Shown here piece by piece: positions 3,960 to 15,043 of a DNA stretch of 26,184 nt. This DNA comes from Candidatus Methanophagales archaeon (lineage in GTDB: Archaea; Halobacteriota; Syntropharchaeia; Alkanophagales; Methanospirareceae), in assembly GCA_021159465.1 (NCBI GenBank), contig JAGGRR010000078.1:1-26184 (forward strand), read 5' to 3'. Under the pieces are notes generated by a model. That model saw nothing but the letters and a program-made list of their open reading frames with translations. It was not told the DNA's origin and searched no databases. Every line of letters begins with the position of its first letter. The stretch's first letter is position 1. The translations under genes and the position numbers were made by a program.

Positions 3960-5479
3960 CACGGCATCACCCCCGTGCACAAATTCGTTAATGGCTCTAT
4001 CAATGGCGTTGCGAGACTGGTAAGCCAGAAGAGCCCAGCAATAATGCATAATGCAGCGAAGAGGAACATAGGTATCAGCATGCTATGGGGGATTTTTTTC
4101 TCATCCCTTGTACCTCCATCTAGCTCTGACTCTGACTCCTCATGCAGAAGGTATATCCGCTCGATCAGTCTACCGAAATAAACAAGTTCAAGCAGACTGT
4201 TCAGCAGCAGTACGCCCGCAAATGCATAATTGGATGTCTGCAATGTCGCTACCATAAGAAACAGTTTCGTTGCGAACCCTACTGTTGGCGGTACACCAAT
4301 CATTGAAAGCGCAGCTATTGTGAAGACCGCACTTGTATATGGCATTCGCTTGCCCAGCCCTCTGAACTCCCTTATGTCTCGTAAACCCGCTTTATAAATG
4401 AACGCGCCGGCTACGAGGAACAGACAGCCCTTCATTAGGGTATGGTTCAATATGTGTGCCACGGCGCCGAAGAAGCCCCAGGTGGTAGCTGGCGCTAAAC
4501 CCACACCCAGCACGATATAGCCTATCTGTGAGACACTGGAATATGCAAGCATACGCTTGAAGTTGTTCTGTGTTATCGCGAGTACCGAACCTGCGATTAT
4601 TCCTATCGCCGCTACCCAGCAGATTGCTAAATCCATACCTATATAAGCCTTGACGAAATCGAGCGTGAATACAGAGAATATAACTCTGATCAATGCATAG
4701 ACGGAGATATGTGACATCGTTGCTGCTATAAATGCGCTCACTGCTGATGGCGCGTACGTGTATGCATCGGGCTGCCATAGATGGAGTGGGAATAGCGCCA
4801 TCTTTATACTCATACCTATGATGAAGAATACAAATGCAGCCTGTACCATCCTGTTACCGTATAGGGGCGGTAATAGACGCATGAGGTCTTCCATGTTCAA
4901 CGAGCCAGTCACTGCATAGAGGAATCCTACACCCAGGAGATAGAAACAGGCACCTATGGAACCCATTATGACATAATTGTAGCTCGCTTTCAATGCCCGT
5001 CCACCTGCAGCTGCTATCAATGCGTATGCCGCCAGGGAGGATATCTCCAGGAATACATAGAGGTTAAACATATCCCCGGTCACTGTTATACCACACAGCC
5101 CGGTAATGAGGAGCTGGAATAAGACATAAAATGAGACTGTCTTCTTTGCTGGCAATTCACTCTGTACACTACGCCAGGAATATATCGCAATCAGTAGGGA
5201 TGCAAATAGAAGTATAAGCAACACGTATGCATTCAATACATCTACCACATACTCGATACCCCATGGAGGTGCCCATCCACCCAGCCAGTAATGTATCGTT
5301 CCCCGTGTCAGGACATGGTACAGGATGAAGAGAGCCAATATCAACTGGAAAGTAATGGTTGCAATGGATATGAAACAGCTGCTCTTCCTGTTCAGCCAGC
5401 CTGCAACCAGTATGGTATATGCAGAGATCAGCGATACCGCAACTACCAGTATTGGAAATTGTTCGATCATTCCTTCCAC
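3959..5479 (-). CDS. Proton-conducting membrane transporter subunit, NuoL/M/N-MrpA/D family (copy 1)
   Basis: 506 aa polytopic protein with LYVFLEISSLAAYALIA and GMSIKMALFPLHLWQPDAYTYAPSAVSAFIAA motifs. The purine-rich leader GAGGGTGGAAGGA precedes the ATG. Confidence 0.8.
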   Translation of the reverse strand: MEGMIEQFPILVVAVSLISAYTILVAGWLNRKSSCFISIATITFQLILALFILYHVLTRGTIHYWLGGWAPPWGIEYVVDVLNAYVLLILLFASLLIAIYSWRSVQSELPAKKTVSFYVLFQLLITGLCGITVTGDMFNLYVFLEISSLAAYALIAAAGGRALKASYNYVIMGSIGACFYLLGVGFLYAVTGSLNMEDLMRLLPPLYGNRMVQAAFVFFIIGMSIKMALFPLHLWQPDAYTYAPSAVSAFIAATMSHISVYALIRVIFSVFTLDFVKAYIGMDLAICWVAAIGIIAGSVLAITQNNFKRMLAYSSVSQIGYIVLGVGLAPATTWGFFGAVAHILNHTLMKGCLFLVAGAFIYKAGLRDIREFRGLGKRMPYTSAVFTIAALSMIGVPPTVGFATKLFLMVATLQTSNYAFAGVLLLNSLLELVYFGRLIERIYLLHEESESELDGGTRDEKKIPHSMLIPMFLFAALCIIAGLFWLTSLATPLIEPLTNLCTGVMP

Positions 5480-5624
5480 CCTCGTACTCTACTCTATCCT
5501 ACCCTCTTATCCTATCATAGCCGATTATTTAGCCTATTTCCCTACTTCCTACTTATAAGTGTATAATCCAGTTCATAGGCGAAATCATATAAATGCTTTT
5601 CGGTTTTTACCTGCCAATCACCAA

Positions 5625-6155
5625 TCACCAGGGCACTTCTTTCATGCCCAGTTTGAAGCCTGCGAAATTCGTGAGCAGATGCAGCAGGGGCGTAATAAGG
5701 ATGACCACGACCATCACATCAGCAGAGAAGTTGGAGGAGAACCAGTCACGGGCGACAAGAAATAGAAGCAACCATGCCCCACCTACAAAGTCCAGCTGGT
5801 CCACCACGGGTAGAGGAGCACCTCTTCTCAGTCCCAGTCGCCTCTTCACAAAGCTACCCATTATATCACCGAGCATTGCACCTGCGGATAGAGCCAGCAA
5901 TACAATAATGAAGTATGGGAAAGAGCCAAAAGAGCCGTTATAAAGATGTTGGAGCAAGCCGCAGAGGAAGCCCGCAGAGCAGCCTTTGATCAGCCCCTCA
6001 AAAGTCTTACCGTCGCCAAGCAGCCGGTTTCTACCCAGATGAACGCCCCTGTCTATCGGTATCTTGCCACCGAAGAACGCTGCACTTGCATTCGTTATAT
6101 ATGCAGGGAGCATAAGCCAGATCGCGGTACCAACTATGGTTATCGTCATAATCAT
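5625..6155 (-). CDS. carS: CDP-archaeol synthase
   Basis: Small polytopic protein with LPAYITNASAAFFGGKIPIDRG..LLGDGKTFEGLIKG and GDIMGSFVKRRLG motifs of CarS (DUF46). I moved the start to ATG 6155 (MIMTITIV) because the track ORF start at 6206 overlaps the tRNA. Confidence 0.8.
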   Translation of the reverse strand: MIMTITIVGTAIWLMLPAYITNASAAFFGGKIPIDRGVHLGRNRLLGDGKTFEGLIKGCSAGFLCGLLQHLYNGSFGSFPYFIIVLLALSAGAMLGDIMGSFVKRRLGLRRGAPLPVVDQLDFVGGAWLLLFLVARDWFSSNFSADVMVVVILITPLLHLLTNFAGFKLGMKEVPW

Positions 6156-7492: not shown

Positions 7493-8152
7493 ATGGTAAC
7501 GTTACCACTTCCCCTCATCGCTTTCGGTTTTGGGATATTAAGCGTTCTATCACCCTGTATACTCCCGCTCGTTCCACTCATTGCGGCATATTCGACCAGA
7601 ACGAGTAAAATTACGCCTCTAACTGTGGCTATTGGACTCTCTATCTCATTTGCGCTTATGGGTGTACTGGCATCTATCTTTGGCTCGATATTCCAGCGAT
7701 ATAAATTGGTGTTGCAGATTATAGGTGGTCTTCTGATTATATTTCTCGGTTTGTGTATGATATTCGAGTTATTAGAGCAGAAGATACACACAATCATACC
7801 CAGGAAAGGCACCACAAGCACAGGGTTCTCCATTAACCACGTGCATGGAACAGCAGGGGGGCTATTACTCGGTTTTTCGCTCGGTATCGTCTGGACACCT
7901 TGCATTGGTCCCATACTTGGTACTATACTCACAATGGTAGCGGTTGAAGGCGATATACTCTACGGCGCCTTTCTTCTGGTCATCTATTCGCTTGGACTGG
8001 GGTTGCCTTTGCTCGTAATTGCGTATACCACTCATTTCTCAATGAAACCGTTCCTCAAATACAGTATAGCAATAAAGAGGCTTTCGGGAGTTATTCTGGT
8101 GCTGGTCGGGATTTATTTCATATATAATTCGATCATAATCTACGGTTTTTAG
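7493..8152 (+). CDS. ccdA: Cytochrome c biogenesis thiol-disulfide transporter CcdA/DsbD-like
   Basis: 219 aa, six predicted TM helices, with the two signature Cys motifs LSPCILPLVP and WTPCIGPILG. An AGGAGGGG Shine-Dalgarno sequence lies 6 nt upstream. Confidence 0.85.
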   Translation: MVTLPLPLIAFGFGILSVLSPCILPLVPLIAAYSTRTSKITPLTVAIGLSISFALMGVLASIFGSIFQRYKLVLQIIGGLLIIFLGLCMIFELLEQKIHTIIPRKGTTSTGFSINHVHGTAGGLLLGFSLGIVWTPCIGPILGTILTMVAVEGDILYGAFLLVIYSLGLGLPLLVIAYTTHFSMKPFLKYSIAIKRLSGVILVLVGIYFIYNSIIIYGF

Positions 8153-9939
8153 CAGCCAGGCATGGATTCCACTTCTACTTCTCTTACATTTACTGCCACT
8201 CCTCTTTCTGACTCCACCATCTCCCAGCCGCTCATTTTCGCTCTGCCCACTCCAAATGCTTTATCACCGCGAAATATAACTTCGTCATTCTCCCTTATCT
8301 CTTCACCGGCATTCAGGACCCCGGGTGCCAGTATTGAACCCTTTGGTACAAAATCGCCTATTTCCACTATATAAGGGGTAAATTTCCCGATTCTCCGTGC
8401 ACCTTTTGTTGTGAGGGTTATGAGTCCATATTCGGGTGCAATGCGTGCAAGGACACCCTCAGTTGATATGAGCCTGAAACAGGGGTATTTCCCTTTCAGT
8501 GTCAGTTCTCCTTTCACAAGCTCCTCACCAGTGCCGAGCCCAAACTGGTAATCAGCCATCGCCTTAAATATCCTTGTGCCCATCTCAAGTTTGGATAGTT
8601 TCTTTTTCGCACCACAGAGCGCTGCTATACAACTTCTCAAGCGTTCGAGAGCCTCTTTTGTGTACTCCTTCTCGTTCTCCTCGCATGTGAATATGACCCC
8701 CATGCCCAGTTCTTCTGCCACTGTTGCGCATATCTCTTTATATGCACCCCTGAGATGTGCAACAACCATGTCGTAATTACCACGATTTCTATCAAGGTAG
8801 GCACGGAGACAGGAAGTCACCCACGCACGCTCCTCCGCATCCCAGTACCCTGTCACGGGTATGTCATAAAACGCAGCGGGATAGACAAGTTCTAATTCTC
8901 TCGGAACAGCGCCAAGTGGTGAGGTTAAGATCAGCTCGTGAATGTTGCCCCTGTAATCCCCAATTGCAGTAATGAACTTCCTATGCGATTGCGACGCAGA
9001 ATAGGGTTTCTTAGCAGAACATGGCAGAATCACCAGTACCCGACTCGCGGGTGGTCTGTATCTATCCAGAACACGACTTGCAAATCTCTTCACTTCTATT
9101 CGCCGTAACGACTCCATTGTGTTCACCTTCATGACATGTTTACGGGCAACAGGTATCCTTCTTTCAAAATATTCACTCTCGGCATCCAAAAATCGTAATA
9201 CGGCTGTTAAAAACGTGGACGACCTCACGCGCATCTCAACATACTCGCGCAGGATGCCTAACTTTATATATTCCCTTATCTTCTTCACTTCCCGTTCTAA
9301 TATCAGTCTATTATGCTTTGCAAGCAGTTCCGCTCGCTCCTTAACACTTCGCGCTCTCAACTCTTCTATACTCAGGGAAGAGCAAACGGCGCAGGTGCAT
9401 GGTAAATCCACCATATCATTCACTATTAACTCGCATTCCTCCAGTTGATAAATACCCGCATAACCACTCATCACCGCGTTCGTATCATCTATTATATCCA
9501 CACCCATATAGGCAAGAAGTGCGGCATTCTCCACCGTTGCTATCGCGGGCACCCATAACGCCACATCTGGTGATATCGCCCGCCGTGCATCTATAACCCC
9601 GCGAACGAAATCCTCGGGCGTGTGGAGCATGGAAGAAGCGAAGGCGAGTACGAAGAAATCAACGAATAGCGGGGATGCTTCTTTTAGCTTTGCGAGCAGT
9701 GGATGTACCTCAGGCAGGAGGACCGTGCCGCGCGGACCGTTCCATGTCTCTTCTTTGCTCAACTCTGTGAATAGCGGGGATTCTACACCTATCACCTCCA
9801 TCTTCTCTTCTCCGCCACTGCTCAGCGACTCTATATTGAGTAAAAGTGGCGTTTGCATCTCCTTACTCCTTCCTTTTAATAGTAGCCGCCCTATTCTCGC
9901 TGCACCATCCCGCTTCTTCACCTCATAGAATCTACTCAT
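8149..9939 (-). CDS. arcS: Archaeosine synthase ArcS (TgtA2-type, TGT-like with C-terminal PUA)
   Basis: 596 aa. N-terminus FYEVKKRDGAARIGRL, TGT zinc motif LPCTCAVCSS, degenerate catalytic region (AIATVENAALLAYMGVDIIDD instead of the TgtA consensus), and a C-terminal PUA-like IVEIGDFVPKGSILAPGV..GDKAFGVGRAKMSG. A TgtA identity cannot be fully excluded without alignment. Confidence 0.72.
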   Translation of the reverse strand: MSRFYEVKKRDGAARIGRLLLKGRSKEMQTPLLLNIESLSSGGEEKMEVIGVESPLFTELSKEETWNGPRGTVLLPEVHPLLAKLKEASPLFVDFFVLAFASSMLHTPEDFVRGVIDARRAISPDVALWVPAIATVENAALLAYMGVDIIDDTNAVMSGYAGIYQLEECELIVNDMVDLPCTCAVCSSLSIEELRARSVKERAELLAKHNRLILEREVKKIREYIKLGILREYVEMRVRSSTFLTAVLRFLDAESEYFERRIPVARKHVMKVNTMESLRRIEVKRFASRVLDRYRPPASRVLVILPCSAKKPYSASQSHRKFITAIGDYRGNIHELILTSPLGAVPRELELVYPAAFYDIPVTGYWDAEERAWVTSCLRAYLDRNRGNYDMVVAHLRGAYKEICATVAEELGMGVIFTCEENEKEYTKEALERLRSCIAALCGAKKKLSKLEMGTRIFKAMADYQFGLGTGEELVKGELTLKGKYPCFRLISTEGVLARIAPEYGLITLTTKGARRIGKFTPYIVEIGDFVPKGSILAPGVLNAGEEIRENDEVIFRGDKAFGVGRAKMSGWEMVESERGVAVNVREVEVESMPGC

Positions 9940-9986
9940 TTGTTATCCCTATCCCTCATTTACGCTTTATCTGGTATGCAAGTCTC

Positions 9987-9994
9987 TTTTATAA
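9987..9994. promoter_or_regulatory. TATA-like TTTTATAA in the arcS/trm1 divergent spacer
   Basis: This is the only AT-rich box in the 62-bp spacer. It lies about 50 nt upstream of the arcS ATG and 8-17 nt upstream of the trm1 ATGs, which suggests a leaderless trm1 transcript. Confidence 0.4.
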
Positions 9995-10001
9995 GGTAAG
10001 A

Positions 10002-11168
10002 ATGGAATGTATGAGCTATAAGCTTATAGAACGAGTAGAGGGGAGCACGAGAGTACTGGTGCCGAAGCGAGCTAAGAGGGCACTTTTTTATAATCCCAGA
10101 ATGGAACTCTGCCGGGATATAGATATAGCCGCATTAGCTGCTTTCACTCATCATTCTAAGTCTAAGTCTAAGTCTAACTCCAGCTCCAGCACAATGGTGT
10201 ATGTGGATGCACTTGCAGGCACTGGTGTGCGCGGTGTCAGGGTGGCGAACGAACTCGGGCTGCAGGTGGTGCTAAATGACCTGAGTAGAGGGGCTTACGA
10301 GGTGATCAATCGCAATGTGAAGCTGAACGGGATAGAGGAAAGAACGAGTATATATAACGAGGATGCAAATGTGCTTCTGCACCGCAACAGGTGCAGGTAT
10401 GATATCGTAGATATAGACCCTTTTGGCTCGCCAGTCCCTTATCTCGATTCGCTATCACAATCGGTGAAGAAGTTGATTATGGTCACTGCAACAGATACAG
10501 CGCCTTTATGTGGCGCTCATACCGGGGGTTTGAGGAAGTATGCCGCAAAACCGCTGAATACCGAATATCATAAGGAGATGGCAACACGTATCCTGCTGGG
10601 GCGAGTAACGAGGGACCTGTGCAGACATGACAGGGCAATACAGCCGCTGCTGTGCTATTCGTGGAGCCATTTCGTGAGGCTCATAGCAAGAGTGGAAAGA
10701 GGTGCAAAGCGAGCAGATGAGTGCATGAAGAGACTTGGCTTCATTCTTCATTGCTTCTCCTGCGGTAGCAGATATGCTATTCATTGCTCTGAACTGCAGG
10801 ATATGAATATGAGCACGAGATGCGAGGTCTGTGGTGCTAAAATCAGGATTGCAGGACCCCTGTATTTGAGTCCGATAAAGGATAATAGCTTTTGCAAACA
10901 TGTATATGAAGAGTTAAGAGTGAGACAACTGGGAAAGAAGCGAGAAGCGCAGAAAATCGTCGCTACATGCATGAATGAACTGGACATACCATTCTATTAT
11001 GACTATCACGAGATATGCAAGGCTTTGAAGATATCTCCGCCTTCTATCCACTTCCTGATTGAGAGATTGAATGATAGTGGTTTTAGAGCGAGCAGGACAC
11101 ATTTCTCTGATACAGGATTTAAGACAGAAGCGAAGATGGAAGAGGTAAAGGAGATTTTAAGGAGGTAA
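10002..11168 (+). CDS. trm1: tRNA (guanine26-N2)-dimethyltransferase Trm1
   Basis: IERVEGSTRVLVP, FYNPRMELCRD, DALAGTGVRGVRVANE, NDLS and DIDPFGSPVPYLDS motifs, plus a C-terminal Zn ribbon CFSCGS..CEVCG. The track start at 9846 overlaps arcS on the opposite strand and I rejected it. ATG 10002 or 10011 is the likely start. Confidence 0.85.
   Translation: MECMSYKLIERVEGSTRVLVPKRAKRALFYNPRMELCRDIDIAALAAFTHHSKSKSKSNSSSSTMVYVDALAGTGVRGVRVANELGLQVVLNDLSRGAYEVINRNVKLNGIEERTSIYNEDANVLLHRNRCRYDIVDIDPFGSPVPYLDSLSQSVKKLIMVTATDTAPLCGAHTGGLRKYAAKPLNTEYHKEMATRILLGRVTRDLCRHDRAIQPLLCYSWSHFVRLIARVERGAKRADECMKRLGFILHCFSCGSRYAIHCSELQDMNMSTRCEVCGAKIRIAGPLYLSPIKDNSFCKHVYEELRVRQLGKKREAQKIVATCMNELDIPFYYDYHEICKALKISPPSIHFLIERLNDSGFRASRTHFSDTGFKTEAKMEEVKEILRR
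10155..10190 (+). repeat. In-frame hexanucleotide repeat (TCTAAG)x3, then TCTAAC and (TCCAGC)x2, inside trm1
   Basis: Read directly. It encodes SKSKSKSNSSSS immediately before the SAM-binding DALAGTG motif. Confidence 0.95.
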
Positions 11169-11287: not shown

Positions 11288-11899
11288 ATGGAGAAAGGTG
11301 AAAAGATAATTATTTCGGTGGTTGTTCTGGTTACCATTGTTGTTATTGTTGGTGCGGCGGTAGTGATACCTACAATGATGCAAGAGATGACGAAACCGGA
11401 AAGCTGTGCCAAGAACTGTCATGAGATGCAACCATTTTATGATTCATTGCAGGATTCGCCTCATGCGGGGGTAGACTGTCACGAATGCCATGAGAGTACG
11501 GAGCCAGAGATGTTTCTGTATATGAAAGAGATGACCAACCATCTTGAGGGTATAAGCGAAGGTCTGAAGGCGGGCAAGAGTTTAGATGAGACCACAGCGG
11601 AAATGGCAGAGAAACTGGAGAGTGAGCCACCCACAAGTGCTTCTCTTCCAAAGAATGAGTATTGTATGAGATGTCATAGCACCAATTATAAACCATTAGC
11701 AGAGATTGCAGACCCCGGTATCTCGTGCTTTAAATGTCACTCCACGATTGCACACACCGAACATAAGGTCGCTCTCTACCAGGGATACTGGAGTCCTGAT
11801 TTAGAAGACCACGAATGTGTAGCATGTCATAACGAGCATGATGTAACGGTAAAGGAAGAGACCTGCAAAGCGTGTCACCCACCGGAGAAACATCCTTAA
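11288..11899 (+). CDS. Membrane-anchored multihaem cytochrome c, NapC/NirT/NrfH-like with two extra C-terminal haem motifs
   Basis: N-terminal TM helix followed directly by CAKNCHEM (compare the CxxCHxM of the family). Then CHECH, CMRCH and CFKCHSTIAH (family-like), plus CVACH and CKACH. That gives five CxxCH motifs and one CX3CH. TATA at 11213-11220 and AGGAGG at 11275-11280. Confidence 0.85.
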   Translation: MEKGEKIIISVVVLVTIVVIVGAAVVIPTMMQEMTKPESCAKNCHEMQPFYDSLQDSPHAGVDCHECHESTEPEMFLYMKEMTNHLEGISEGLKAGKSLDETTAEMAEKLESEPPTSASLPKNEYCMRCHSTNYKPLAEIADPGISCFKCHSTIAHTEHKVALYQGYWSPDLEDHECVACHNEHDVTVKEETCKACHPPEKHP

Positions 11900-11942: not shown

Positions 11943-13889
11943 CTACCTGCTTTTATGCGCTTCATTGCATATCAGAATGACCATACCTGCTGCCAGCAAT
12001 ATCACGCCAGACCATACGAGCCATATTAGTGGTACCCGCTTCACTTTTATCCTGAAATCCGCTGGCTGCCGCTTCTCTCCCATGAGCGCATAGAATAGCG
12101 AGTTATAGCTGGAGTTCGTGTGCTCCATAAAGATATAGAGGTCGCCTCGCAACGTGGAGATGATCAGTGGTTTGGACAGAATACCATAGTTTGTATAATA
12201 ATACATCCTTAGACTTTTGTTAGTGTATACAGTAGTGCCATCAACGATAGAGACGTCAAGAGCCAGACTCGAGTATTCAGGCATGGTAAAGAAATGCCCG
12301 GTACTGGCGTAAACATGCCCTCTGCCCGGATATATCGTGGGAGTCCCCAAGGTTATCTTCGCATCGAGCGCATCAACAGTCGAGTTGGGCTTTGCAATTA
12401 TGCCCCTGCTCTCTGTCTGCGCGGTGGAGCTGACGAATACGCCTATTAATATAATAATGATGGCGATATGGATTAGCGCCTTGCCCCATATATATGGAGA
12501 TTGCCTCCCCCCCTTAGTGCACAGAGCGGATCCGAGATAATAAGCGATGGCAAATCCTGCGGCGAGCAGTAGAGGCAGTCCAAAGTTAGCCATCCAGTTC
12601 GGCGTTGGAACACGAAGCAGTACCAAAATCACGCCAATCGCTGCTATTGAGGCGATTGACCATATAAATCTCTTTACCTTCATGCTCATACTGCAGCCCA
12701 TCAATGCAGCGACGAATACGAGTGTGAAAGGGTAGCACCATCTATTATAGAATTCCGGGGTTGTACTCATTGGTGCACCACCCAATGCACCCCCTATTAT
12801 CGGTGCAAGGTCACCCAGGAAACATATAATCATGAGGAACATCAACGACCAGAACGCCACGAATAGAGAGATGGAACTCAGTAACGAGATATCAACTTCC
12901 GGACTGTAAATGGGTCTGGCTCTCTCTGTCCCTGTCCTCAATGCGAGATAGAAGAAGTAAAGGACGACTCCAAGTGCGAATATCAAAAGTGCGGGTCCAA
13001 CAGGCGATTTCCCGAATGCATGAACCGATTCTAAGAGTCCGCCACGGGTAAGTGCAGTGGCAAAGATGACCATGAAGAAGGTAATCATAAGTGTGAGCTC
13101 TCTCATCATATCTTTACTTTTTCCTGGCAGGTGGAAGTATGCAGTAAGAGCAAGCCAGGGGACTAAAGAGGCAGTCTCCACAGGGTCCCATGCCCAATAG
13201 CCACCCCAGCCGAGGACTTCGTAAGACCACCACCCTCCAAGTGCTATTCCAAACGCAAGGAACAGCCACGCTGAATATAGAATAATGCTGTTTAGCTCTT
13301 CTTCGCCTTCTCTCTCGCCTGTTGCCAGCCCCGCAAGCATGAAAGCGCATGCGAAGAATACTAATACATAGCCAATAAAGACTACCGGAGGATGCACAAG
13401 TACCCAGAACGTTTGAAGCAGTGGATTGAGTCCTGCACCATCGGGAGGGTTCATGGGTAGAAGCTCAAAAGGGCTCTTCAATATTGTGAGAACAAGGATA
13501 AAGAAGAGAAAGATGTCCAGTATTCTGGATGCAGCTATGTTGAACCTGCGCTCTCGTCCCAAGACTCTTATGCGATATATAAAGTATATAATAGAGAATA
13601 TGAAGGCGATGAAGAGCATTGACCCGCTACTGCCTATCCACGGATCACCGATCTTGTAAGGTAGAGCGAGACTGGAAGAGCTGTAAGTGTAGACCTCTTC
13701 CAGCCAGAAAGCATCATGTATAAAAGCCATAGTTAGTCTGAAGTATGCAGCGACTACCAGCACGCATGCGAGCGAAGAAGCGAGAAAAGCAGCTTCAAAC
13801 CTCTTCCTCGTGCCAGCCCGCATTAGCAAACTCAGATCGAATAAAAGCAGAACGGCAGCCAGTATTATGAGTGCATCTCCTATATCCAT
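11943..13889 (-). CDS. ccmF: Cytochrome c-type biogenesis protein CcmF (System I haem lyase subunit, NrfE-like)
   Basis: 648 aa polytopic protein. It has the WWD-type motif LGWGGYWAWDPVETASLVPWLALTAYFH, conserved His contexts VLVHPPVVF and ESVHAFGKSP, and a typical C-terminal periplasmic domain with a final TM helix. GGAGGATGGGG precedes the ATG. Confidence 0.9.
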   Translation of the reverse strand: MDIGDALIILAAVLLLFDLSLLMRAGTRKRFEAAFLASSLACVLVVAAYFRLTMAFIHDAFWLEEVYTYSSSSLALPYKIGDPWIGSSGSMLFIAFIFSIIYFIYRIRVLGRERRFNIAASRILDIFLFFILVLTILKSPFELLPMNPPDGAGLNPLLQTFWVLVHPPVVFIGYVLVFFACAFMLAGLATGEREGEEELNSIILYSAWLFLAFGIALGGWWSYEVLGWGGYWAWDPVETASLVPWLALTAYFHLPGKSKDMMRELTLMITFFMVIFATALTRGGLLESVHAFGKSPVGPALLIFALGVVLYFFYLALRTGTERARPIYSPEVDISLLSSISLFVAFWSLMFLMIICFLGDLAPIIGGALGGAPMSTTPEFYNRWCYPFTLVFVAALMGCSMSMKVKRFIWSIASIAAIGVILVLLRVPTPNWMANFGLPLLLAAGFAIAYYLGSALCTKGGRQSPYIWGKALIHIAIIIILIGVFVSSTAQTESRGIIAKPNSTVDALDAKITLGTPTIYPGRGHVYASTGHFFTMPEYSSLALDVSIVDGTTVYTNKSLRMYYYTNYGILSKPLIISTLRGDLYIFMEHTNSSYNSLFYALMGEKRQPADFRIKVKRVPLIWLVWSGVILLAAGMVILICNEAHKSR

Positions 13890-13909
13890 CTGTTATACCC
13901 CATCCTCCG

Positions 13910-14341
13910 TCAATTCACCTCCTGTTCCTTCTCAGCCTGTGCCAATGTTCTGCCCTTCTCATTCACCACACGTACAATCATCATCACCCTATCGCCTTTT
14001 TTCAGCACGACATCCCGGGGGAACCCAATGGTGAAATTATAGGTACCGTTACCATGATAGCTCTGGGCAGCCCAATAGCTCATCTTAGCTCTGTTTACTA
14101 TCGCTTTAGCCTCAACAGCCGGGAAAAACACACCGGAATTACCCTTTGGACTTTGTAAAGGATTCATCTTCTCCTGCTTCATCTCCACTATTCTTACCGC
14201 TGGTCTGTCATCGGTCACTGTAACCACTGCCTGGACTTTTATTACCGGTACCTGCCCCATACTCACCATGGAGTATAGAGCGAGACCTACAACCGCCACA
14301 ACGACGATGGTGACGATGACATTGACGCTGGGCAACCTCAT
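13910..14341 (-). CDS. Hypothetical N-terminally membrane-anchored extracytoplasmic protein (143 aa), unrecognised family
   Basis: MRLPSVNVIVTIVVVAVVGLALY anchor followed by a beta-rich domain with no Cys and a single His. Its ATG overlaps the upstream cytochrome stop (TAATG), and a strong GAGGGAGGAAGAG sits 8-18 nt upstream. It lies 20 nt upstream of ccmF. Evidence for coding is positional, not homology. Confidence 0.6.
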   Translation of the reverse strand: MRLPSVNVIVTIVVVAVVGLALYSMVSMGQVPVIKVQAVVTVTDDRPAVRIVEMKQEKMNPLQSPKGNSGVFFPAVEAKAIVNRAKMSYWAAQSYHGNGTYNFTIGFPRDVVLKKGDRVMMIVRVVNEKGRTLAQAEKEQEVN

Positions 14342-15003
14342 TACTCTCTTCCTCCCTCTATAAACCTCAATAGTGCTTTTAACATATTTAAGATGGTGGG
14401 ATATCTCTTCTCTTCTTCGCTCTTTATTACTGGCACACCCTCCTTCATCTGATAGCCCTCCCCCTTATATTTTATGCCAAAGGAGCCATGGCAGGCGACG
14501 CATAACTCCCCTGTTCTGTTACCATGGATAAAATGAACGCCACCCTGATGGCAGGAGTTGCAATCACCACTTTCTGGCATCCTCAAGTTCTTACCCGCTC
14601 CATGACATCCCCCGCAATCCACATTTATGTGCACACGATGGATTTCATTAGCGGATATCTCCCCAGCTTTTGCTATTCCCGTTCCTATATGACAGTCAAT
14701 ACATGCTTGTATGCCGTGTGCCCTGGTTCTGATTTTTTCATTGTCTATCGCTCCACCGGTCACGTATTCTTTCCCATGACACACACAGGAGCTGACCATT
14801 GAGCGCAATCTGCTCTCAGGGAGGAGTGAGACATGGCATTGCACACATTCCGGTGCTGGATGCCAGGAGCCGATGAAACCCGTTGGATTCGGTGGTATCA
14901 CCTCACTGTTCTCATCGCTCATACCCATACATGTAGTTACAGCGAGGTTTACGATTACAATGAAGAGTAACGCTAACACACACAATTTAAGTTTCCTCAT
15001 CAT
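14341..15003 (-). CDS. Secreted or lipid-anchored pentahaem cytochrome c
   Basis: Signal-like N-terminus MMRKLKLCVLALLFIVIVNLAVTTC. Five CxxCH motifs (CVQCH, CIDCH, CGGCH, CNSCH, CVACH) plus an odd CVCH. I prefer ATG 15003 over the GTG start at 15021 given in the track. Confidence 0.85.
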   Translation of the reverse strand: MMRKLKLCVLALLFIVIVNLAVTTCMGMSDENSEVIPPNPTGFIGSWHPAPECVQCHVSLLPESRLRSMVSSCVCHGKEYVTGGAIDNEKIRTRAHGIQACIDCHIGTGIAKAGEISANEIHRVHINVDCGGCHGAGKNLRMPESGDCNSCHQGGVHFIHGNRTGELCVACHGSFGIKYKGEGYQMKEGVPVIKSEEEKRYPTILNMLKALLRFIEGGRE

Positions 15004-15043
15004 TCGATATATATTTTGCACCAGAGAAATAAAAGTTATACGA

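Follow-up and report, generated by a model that had tools for sequence, protein, structure and literature searches.

How multihaem cytochromes are held and wired at an archaeal membrane that faces no outer membrane, and how archaeal cytochrome nanowires are anchored and assembled, are questions that matter to the anaerobic methanotrophic (ANME) archaea of group ANME-1, to Syntrophoarchaeum, and to Methanoperedens, all of which need such cytochromes to pass electrons from methane or alkanes to partners or minerals. A small gene in a 26,184-nucleotide (nt) stretch of DNA from a Candidatus Methanophagales archaeon (NCBI GenBank assembly GCA_021159465.1, contig JAGGRR010000078.1, positions 1 to 26,184; the whole stretch is called the window) brings these questions to a single locus. 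The gene lies between a multihaem cytochrome gene and the gene for the lyase CcmF, and the protein that it encodes was described in an original prediction, made from the sequence alone, as an unrecognised membrane-anchored protein that might be a divergent haem-handling or lyase-accessory factor of the CcmE or CcmH kind, or else an unrelated cell-surface protein. What does this gene, here called X, do beside a cytochrome and a lyase? X is conserved and extracytoplasmic, it carries a generic beta-sandwich without conserved haem ligands, and its gene abuts cytochrome genes. The reading that we favour, tentatively and at somewhat under an even chance, is that X is a non-redox, membrane-tethered docking or tether adaptor for the multihaem cytochrome encoded just upstream.

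Gene X lies on the minus strand together with the cytochrome gene and ccmF, a location that the original prediction left unstated and that is corrected here. On the coding strand, the junction between the cytochrome gene and gene X reads GAGGGAGGAAGAG-AG-TAATG. The cytochrome stop codon TAA (14343-14341) and the ATG of gene X (14341-14339) have one base in common, within the TAATG at 14339-14343, and the purine-rich, Shine-Dalgarno (SD)-like run GAGGGAGGAAGAG (14346-14358) falls inside the cytochrome gene, so that both the overlapping start and the strong embedded SD sequence had been read correctly. The stop codon of gene X is TGA (13912-13910), and the ATG of ccmF follows at 13889 after a 20-nt spacer that holds a second SD-like sequence, GGAGGATGGGG, again as first described.

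Judged by its sequence and its relatives, gene X is a genuine gene, more than a chance open reading frame (ORF), as homologue clusters, substitution rates that show purifying selection, and a kept gene order attest. A search of 5.8 billion proteins returned 17 clusters of homologues at 44-99% identity, and phmmer, run without filters against 1.84 billion representatives, returned 45 proteins at E<=1e-3, mostly of ~135-165 amino acids (aa) and with a layout like that of X; the phmmer query was the single X sequence, and a profile would have reached further. Comparison with three orthologues gives ratios of nonsynonymous to synonymous substitution rates (dN/dS) of 0.25, 0.19, and 0.16. Contigs of the GTDB, taken as one genome per species, hold 16 X loci, in ANME-1/Methanophagales, in metagenome-assembled genomes (MAGs) labelled only Methanosarcinales or Halobacteria, and in Ca. 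Syntrophoarchaeum. The closest match to X among them (89%) comes from Ca. Methanophagaceae G60ANME1, with whose contig the flanks of the window are syntenic (a PUA-domain amino-acid kinase of glutamate-5 type, TruA, Trm1, and archaeosine TGT), which places the window in ANME-1. In 15 of the 16 loci, from ANME-1 and relatives, and also on contig L028, the ANME-1 module of four genes is kept: a multihaem cytochrome of ~217-245 aa, X, CcmF, and, convergent with these, a NapC/NirT/NrfH-like cytochrome. The predicted tie of X to cytochrome and ccm genes is borne out by this order, and the possibility of a spurious ORF falls away with the homologues found.

No known family claims the protein, as had been suspected. 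X has no Pfam or NCBIfam match beyond sub-threshold noise (FeoB_associated on the transmembrane (TM) helix; AGOG), a Pfam scan of 51 family members gave nothing consistent, and the family profile matched none of the PDB sequences. Giant immunoglobulin (Ig), cadherin, and MucBP repeat proteins (P0041, P0042, P0053, P0061) that gave weak phmmer matches were set aside as generic repeat-sandwich noise and not relatives of X. Our searches met the family in ANME-1, Syntrophoarchaeum, Methanoperedens, Met12, and their relatives and nowhere else, and it is confined to archaea rich in multihaem cytochromes; the Methanoperedens subfamily alone comprises at least 80 clusters at 90% identity. The protein is not named anywhere in the searchable literature, and the gene is absent from the discussion of CcmF paralogues, signal peptidase, and an 8-TM protein in the portion of Chadwick et al. 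considered here. We rate X as the founding member of an undescribed family, an accessory partner of extracytoplasmic redox proteins, for which the alignments show the following features: ~135-165 aa, an N-terminal TM segment or lipobox, and the pattern FP(G/A/S)V ... (S)YW ... YxGxGxY ... GD. A gene for a multihaem c-type cytochrome adjoins the X gene in the window, in 15 of the 16 GTDB loci, and in 37 of 42 metagenomic loci described below, as well as on L026, L029, and L030.

Within these neighbourhoods, the constant neighbour of X is the upstream cytochrome, not CcmF. This is seen in a reverse search, in which an alignment of the cytochrome was compared with metagenome contigs and the loci were scored with hidden Markov models; X lies directly downstream of the cytochrome in 37 of the 42 loci that have enough downstream DNA. 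In Ca. Syntrophoarchaeum caldarius (L027 3917-7423, LYOS01000004.1), two NirD/L-like (ahbA/B-type) genes, hemA, the multihaem cytochrome, and X follow one another with overlapping genes, and CcmF is neither in nor near this operon; the hemA-cytochrome-X arrangement also occurs on related contigs (L023/L070; L075). The order on L039 is multihaem cytochrome, X, NrfH, NrfH. The series on Methanoperedens-type contigs begins with the oligosaccharyltransferase AglB and continues with a secreted protein of DUF11/CARDB-like type that has a TM segment at its C-terminus, a homologous hexahaem cytochrome, X as a lipoprotein, at least one tetrahaem cytochrome like AvECN, the extracellular cytochrome nanowire of Archaeoglobus veneficus (PDB 8E5G; PMC12954529), and an S26 signal peptidase. 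The question of whether homologues always stand beside ccmF thus has a divided answer: they do in the ANME-1 module, which Ca. Methanoxibalbensis shares as cytochrome-X-CcmF, but not in Syntrophoarchaeum, on L039, in Methanoperedens, or in Met12, so that the obligatory genomic association with CcmF expected of a CcmH or NrfF protein is absent.

In Methanoperedens (L030, E=1e-13) and in Met12 (L029, E=5e-11), a more distant X-like gene is directly followed by a gene for a homologue of 8E5G. In Met12 the gene directly downstream is MmcX, that organism's most highly expressed cytochrome, which has been tested electrochemically in Shewanella (PMC11176372). The Met12 X-like ORF (ATZ61494.1 / ATZ61532.2) is unannotated and occurs in the supplementary table of that study only, where its mRNA/DNA ratio is 0.89, against a genome median of 0.94 and 8.97 for MmcX (PMC11176372); this table is the only expression evidence that we found for the X family. 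On L026, an X-like gene adjoins a 13-haem NapC-like cytochrome, and altogether X-like genes adjoin cytochromes of at least three types. As a separate observation, a recurring extracellular electron-transfer gene island, with the set of genes listed above for Methanoperedens, is common to Methanoperedens-type contigs (L074, L077, L078, L079) and to ANME-1 (L003 1-7500). The region a few kilobases upstream of the cytochrome-X-CcmF genes on L003 holds two AvECN/MmcX-like cytochromes, an S26 peptidase, and a multi-TM protein, an arrangement that matches the ANME-1 cytochrome cluster in the portion of Chadwick et al. considered here. Methanoperedens contig L030 also carries, directly upstream of its X-like gene and AvECN-like cytochrome, a gene for a secreted FKBP-type peptidyl-prolyl isomerase lipoprotein (5075-5935), from which the gene of a 12-haem NapC-like cytochrome diverges; the isomerase is possibly a folding factor for the cluster.

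The layout first described for X, with an N-terminal anchor and a beta-rich extracytoplasmic domain, is confirmed by sequence, homologues, and model, as are its reality as a gene and its translational coupling. The only hydrophobic segment of X spans residues 5-27 (Kyte-Doolittle 19-residue mean 2.76). The domain behind it is all-beta, and almost no linker separates this sandwich from the TM helix or, in other members, from the lipid anchor. The anchor sequence is poorly conserved, and in many homologues a lipobox-type signal (..SGC / ..CGC) takes its place. Such swaps of lipobox for TM segment indicate that the anchor sequence is interchangeable and that the domain lies outside the cell, which the secreted fusions described below confirm; the variability of the anchor also makes specific intramembrane packing, for example against CcmF, unlikely. 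An AlphaFold2 (AF2) model of the domain alone, based on an alignment of 51 sequences, is a two-sheet beta-sandwich with a mean predicted local distance difference test (pLDDT) score of 93.6 and a predicted template modelling (pTM) score of 0.86. It replaces an earlier full-length model from 18 sequences (pLDDT 77.5), in which the TM helix diluted the Foldseek matches. In a Foldseek comparison with the PDB, of which the best 50 of ~1100 weak matches were considered, none fell below E=1e-3. The closest was the N-terminal sandwich of Bacteroides M64-like peptidases (TM-score 0.58, E 2.6e-3), followed by C2 domains and glycosidase sandwiches. The strand count of X fits the two-sheet sandwich of 7-8 strands expected of the Ig-like/C2-like class, the closest structural match being too weak, at these values, to assign X to a family. 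Family-wide, G97, G99, and Y101 are invariant and W90 is nearly so.

The sandwich is also a portable module, found in C-terminal fusions and tandem duplications. It forms the C-terminal part of a NosD-like right-handed beta-helix protein of 1115 aa (L016 57-3404, ANME-1 MAG B64_G16, QMVO01000198.1) and, in a separate fusion, of a BNR/sortilin propeller protein (P0018); both junctions read M-E-E-V-P, and since the contigs are short these fusions may be assembly chimeras. The domain occurs as well within a longer lipoprotein (P0015) and as a tandem pair in proteins of ~275-296 aa.

These data bear directly on the haem-handling idea, in which X would be a divergent CcmE-like chaperone or a CcmH/NrfF-like subunit of the lyase, handling haem through His96 and Tyr101 or apocytochrome thiols for CcmF. 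The idea has its attractions: an N-terminal anchor and a beta-rich domain of ~115 aa stand beside ccmF, as in the CcmE-type layout, neither His96 nor Tyr101 varies in the closest ANME-1 clade, and the non-canonical CXCH and CX3CH haem motifs of the neighbouring cytochromes might need special handling. X has no Cys, which leaves thiol chemistry impossible, and its only His is H96, in SYHGNGTY (H-x4-Y), both exactly as noted at the outset. Beyond the closest clade H96 is not conserved; the motif of the wider family is Y-x-G-x-G-x-Y, with K, T, R, N, or S at position 96. The replacement occurs even where the operon is kept, as in P0023 (L028, a Methanophagales protein of the full cytochrome-X-CcmF-NrfH module), which has KFKGSGTY and no His at all, and in the X of Ca. 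Methanoxibalbensis, which has YKGAGDY; Syntrophoarchaeum X has YRGAGNY. One Methanoperedens member lacks both His and Cys, and some orthologues have no His and, apart from the lipobox, no Cys. The family alignments hold no conserved column of Cys, His, or Met, and a ligand-based haem or metal role is therefore not a property of the family; His-based haem binding as a family function is, on these alignments, ruled out. Neither X nor the homologues inspected contain a CXXCH-type motif.

Fold and profile comparisons agree with this outcome. The CcmE profile (PF03100) gives no match to X at E<=1 and is not among the families matched by the 51 members, nor does any other ccm family match; there is no tetratricopeptide repeat (TPR) match, and the model is all-beta. 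The structure prediction proposed for settling the matter against the CcmE oligonucleotide/oligosaccharide-binding (OB) fold and CcmH/NrfF returned a sandwich, neither an OB barrel nor a helical bundle, and CcmE, CcmH, and NrfF are not among the best 50 Foldseek matches of either X model. CcmABCE are reported in cytochrome-bearing ANME-1 in the portion of PMC9012536 considered here, and there is therefore no vacant CcmE slot for X to fill. The CXCH motif, moreover, occurs also where CcmF is not adjacent. With the cytochrome, and not CcmF, as the travelling partner, the CcmE/CcmH-like reading is largely refuted already by conservation and fold, and we give it very little credence. The original prediction had named an unrelated fold, together with homologues unassociated with cytochrome or ccm genes, as grounds for abandoning it; the fold indeed shows no likeness to CcmE, CcmH, or NrfF among those best 50 matches, but the homologues do adjoin such genes. 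Its fallback of an unrelated cell-surface protein was likewise half right, in that X is indeed a module of the cell surface, but one with a clear tie to cytochromes.

The travelling partner itself differs from its first description as a pentahaem cytochrome. It contains a CXCH besides five CXXCH motifs, and across 19 orthologues from ANME-1 and Syntrophoarchaeum none of the 12 Cys that form these motifs, and none of the 12 His, varies. The variants at the CXCH site are CVCH (in the window), CICH, CKCH, CNCH, and CECH, and the Methanoperedens homologues have a canonical CXXCH at the same position (SCQNCH, NCDNCH, GCEKCH). The cytochrome is most likely hexahaem, with a second site one spacer residue shorter than usual, because 12 His are exactly what six bis-His haems would need and because the CXCH aligns with a CXXCH. 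We found no description of a CXCH haem motif in the searchable literature. The thought that CXCH might be tied to an adjacent CcmF was dropped, since the motif occurs also in Syntrophoarchaeum and on L074 without one. The listed start of the cytochrome is a GTG (15021), and the orthologue alignment favours the Met of MMRKLKL about six codons further on, near 15003. Apart from its signal peptide the protein lacks hydrophobic segments, and it has neither a TM anchor nor a PGF-CTERM anchor. At its end is an amphipathic helix of the form YPTILNxLKALL, with a hydrophobic moment of 0.64-0.68, kept from ANME-1 to Methanoperedens, which may be a docking or membrane-surface element.

On the other side of X, CcmF matches Pfam Cytochrom_C_asm and CcmF_C, NCBIfam CcmF/NrfE, and the Thermus thermophilus CcmF structure 6ZMQ (E=1e-44), and it keeps the WWD motif and all four functional His. 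In the published CcmF tree, ANME-1 form a single clade with essentially one gene per genome, and the CcmF in the window is therefore a general lyase; the candidate of a dedicated NrfE-like paralogue for odd haem motifs was rejected on the same ground. How wide a range of substrates this single ANME-1 CcmF accepts becomes a question in view of the strictly conserved CXCH site. In the convergent NrfH-like cytochrome the first motif is CX3CH (CAKNCH, CASNCH, CAENCH, CGKNCH), followed by five CXXCH, in all 15 loci examined. From its sequence, this protein is a candidate for the quinol:cytochrome oxidoreductase of ANME-1; the words NapC and NrfH are not used in the ANME comparative paper.

The adaptor reading of X arises from these observations taken together: the conserved pairing with the cytochrome, the persistence of the pair without CcmF, and the X-like genes at other cytochromes, and further the single-anchor topology of X, the lack of an anchor on its partner, the portability of the domain, and the absence of ligand residues. 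X would sit on the outer face of the cytoplasmic membrane and partner the cytochrome encoded just upstream, and in ANME-1 translational coupling yields both from one mRNA. The cytochrome, once its signal peptide is cleaved, has no anchor of its own and only the amphipathic C-terminal helix, and X would dock it at the membrane surface. Held there, it would stand beside the NrfH-type quinol dehydrogenase and, during maturation, beside CcmF, and electrons would thereby be relayed outward. Physical binding between X and the cytochrome, and the tethering role, are the parts of this reading that we infer.

Several observations weigh against it. The five loci that have no X downstream of the cytochrome are not scattered and constitute two cytochrome lineages (L036/38/76; L080/81). 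A distant X subfamily (L024, 5680-8393; L025, 5683-8392) has no adjacent cytochrome at all and lies between a cytoplasmic coiled-coil protein of ~430 aa without a family match and a flippase-like LPG_synthase_TM protein. The neighbours of X are often biogenesis genes (CcmF, hemA/ahbAB, S26 signal peptidase, AglB), and such company suits an assembly role no less than a structural one. The Met12 X-like transcript, finally, is about 10-fold below that of the adjacent MmcX, which is unlike a subunit present at 1:1.

The last two points lead to the main rival of the adaptor, namely that X is a transient biogenesis escort, a membrane-tethered holdase or assembly factor and not a permanent subunit, which would capture the exported apocytochrome, perhaps by its C-terminal helix, hand it to CcmF or nucleate or aid the polymerisation of nanowire-type cytochromes, and then be released. 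Such a capture has a precedent in Rhodobacter, where CcmI captures apocytochrome c2 by its C-terminal helix. The translational coupling of X between the cytochrome and the essentially single CcmF of ANME-1, the placing of the Syntrophoarchaeum pair in an operon with haem-biosynthesis genes, and the recurrence of S26 signal peptidase and AglB nearby all suit an escort, and a transcript at about one-tenth of MmcX is what a catalytic or sub-stoichiometric factor would show. Room for accessory proteins is also left by archaeal System I, which lacks CcmH according to the portion of PMC9012536 considered here; the X family, however, is absent from most archaea with a CcmH-less System I. Outside ANME-1, X is separated from CcmF in most lineages, C-terminal fusion to large mature surface proteins would be unusual for a chaperone, and MmcX matured and worked in Shewanella without X (PMC11176372). 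An escort role is unlikely on balance, though it deserves serious consideration.

The subfamily beside LPG_synthase_TM supports a different rival, in which X would be a general cell-envelope sandwich that binds lipid, glycan, or the surface layer (S-layer) in the manner of C2 domains or carbohydrate-binding modules (CBM), its adjacency to cytochromes reflecting no more than shared islands of envelope and extracellular electron transfer (EET) genes. The Foldseek neighbours (C2, glycosidase sandwiches, a peptidase N-domain), the fusions to NosD-like and BNR surface proteins, and the presence of AglB and DUF11-like envelope proteins nearby are in line with this. Shared islands would not readily explain why the order of cytochrome followed by X, often with overlapping stop and start, persists from ANME-1 to Methanoperedens when cytochrome identity has fallen to ~28% and all flanks have changed, nor the independent placements beside three cytochrome types, and adjacency is far above what chance would give from a cytochrome gene density that we estimate at ~1%. 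An envelope protein of this general sort is accordingly a distinctly improbable account of X. What probability remains goes to some explanation beyond an adaptor, an escort, an envelope protein, or a haem handler.

Broader roles can also be imagined for X. The X family may be the missing membrane-side connector of archaeal EET, a lipid- or TM-anchored platform that docks the hexahaem relay and anchors or nucleates nanowires of AvECN/MmcX type at the cell surface in Methanoperedens, Met12, and ANME-1; we consider this rather improbable as it stands, and were it true, X would be the physical link between the extracellular wire and NrfH-type quinol oxidation in the membrane. X and the hexahaem cytochrome could also act as a stand-in for the CcmH/CcmI module that archaeal System I lacks. 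X is a concrete and testable candidate for holding cytochromes at the membrane, being small, conserved, unannotated, and nearly always beside a hexahaem or AvECN/MmcX-type cytochrome, and a tempting mis-annotation as a CcmE- or CcmH-like protein has been removed. The features of the locus are collected in Table 1.

Table 1. Features of the X locus, in coordinates of the window.
Feature	Position	Strand	Description and basis
Gene X	13910..14341	-	143 aa; membrane-tethered beta-sandwich protein; ORF list and sequence, homologues, dN/dS
Coupling signals of gene X	14339..14358	-	Read directly from sequence
X N-terminal membrane anchor	14261..14329	-	Residues 5-27; Kyte-Doolittle; AF2 helix residues 4-27
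X extracytoplasmic beta-sandwich	13913..14257	-	Residues 29-143 (115 aa), 7-8 strands; AF2
Most conserved X stretch	14039..14080	-	S88-Y-W...Y95-H-G-N-G-T-Y101; alignments
X-ccmF spacer	13890..13909	-	Exactly 20 nt; SD-like GGAGGATGGGG at 13898-13908
Partner multihaem cytochrome	14341..15021	-	226 aa as listed; signal peptide, 5 CXXCH + 1 CXCH, 12 invariant His
Cytochrome CXCH (C79-V-C-H82)	14776..14787	-	Invariant in 19 orthologues
Cytochrome C-terminal amphipathic helix	14359..14403	-	YPTILNMLKALLRFI; conservation and hydrophobic moment
CcmF	11943..13889	-	648 aa; Pfam, NCBIfam, and 6ZMQ match
NapC/NirT/NrfH-family membrane cytochrome	11288..11899	+	203 aa, convergent with CcmF; CX3CH + 5 CXXCH

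Elsewhere in the window, the Trm1-like ORF (9846-11168, GTG start) shares 94 nt with the TGT gene (8149-9939), and its true start is probably later.

Among known systems, CcmE resembles X in its single N-terminal anchor, its small beta-rich extracytoplasmic domain, and its being encoded with ccm genes. CcmE, however, folds as an OB barrel and ends in a flexible haem-binding tail, HxxxY (CxxxY in archaea), whereas X is a two-sheet sandwich whose H96 is mid-domain and non-conserved, and neither sequence nor fold matches. With the CcmH/NrfF and CcmI/NrfG proteins X shares small size, a membrane anchor, and a gene that adjoins, and is translationally linked to, that of a CcmF-type lyase, but CcmH/NrfF are helical with an essential CXXC and CcmI/NrfG are TPR proteins, in contrast to the all-beta, Cys-free X that follows multihaem cytochromes. 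The structures closest to the X model are the N-domains of M64-like peptidases (PDB 3P1V, 4DF9, 9QDI) and C2 domains, at TM-scores of 0.53-0.58 normalised to X; for the M64-like N-domains, E is 2.6e-3 or worse, identity is 8-11%, and the root-mean-square deviation is 5-6 Å, and with no functional or genomic link to X the similarity is generic. With respect to the AvECN/MmcX systems, an X-like gene lies directly upstream in Met12 and Methanoperedens and in the same cluster in ANME-1, X itself not being a cytochrome. X has its overall plan in common with the Cox11/CtaG, PCuAC, and FixH-type assembly factors of respiratory enzymes, in which an N-terminal anchor carries an Ig-like sandwich of ~110-130 aa at the outer face and the gene adjoins that of the redox protein served. 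They bind metal through conserved Cys, His, or Met, ligands of which X has none, and they are not among the best 50 Foldseek matches of X. By this analogy of plan, anchor-plus-sandwich assembly or tether proteins such as Cox11, PCuAC, and the FixH type are probably the nearest functional analogues of X.

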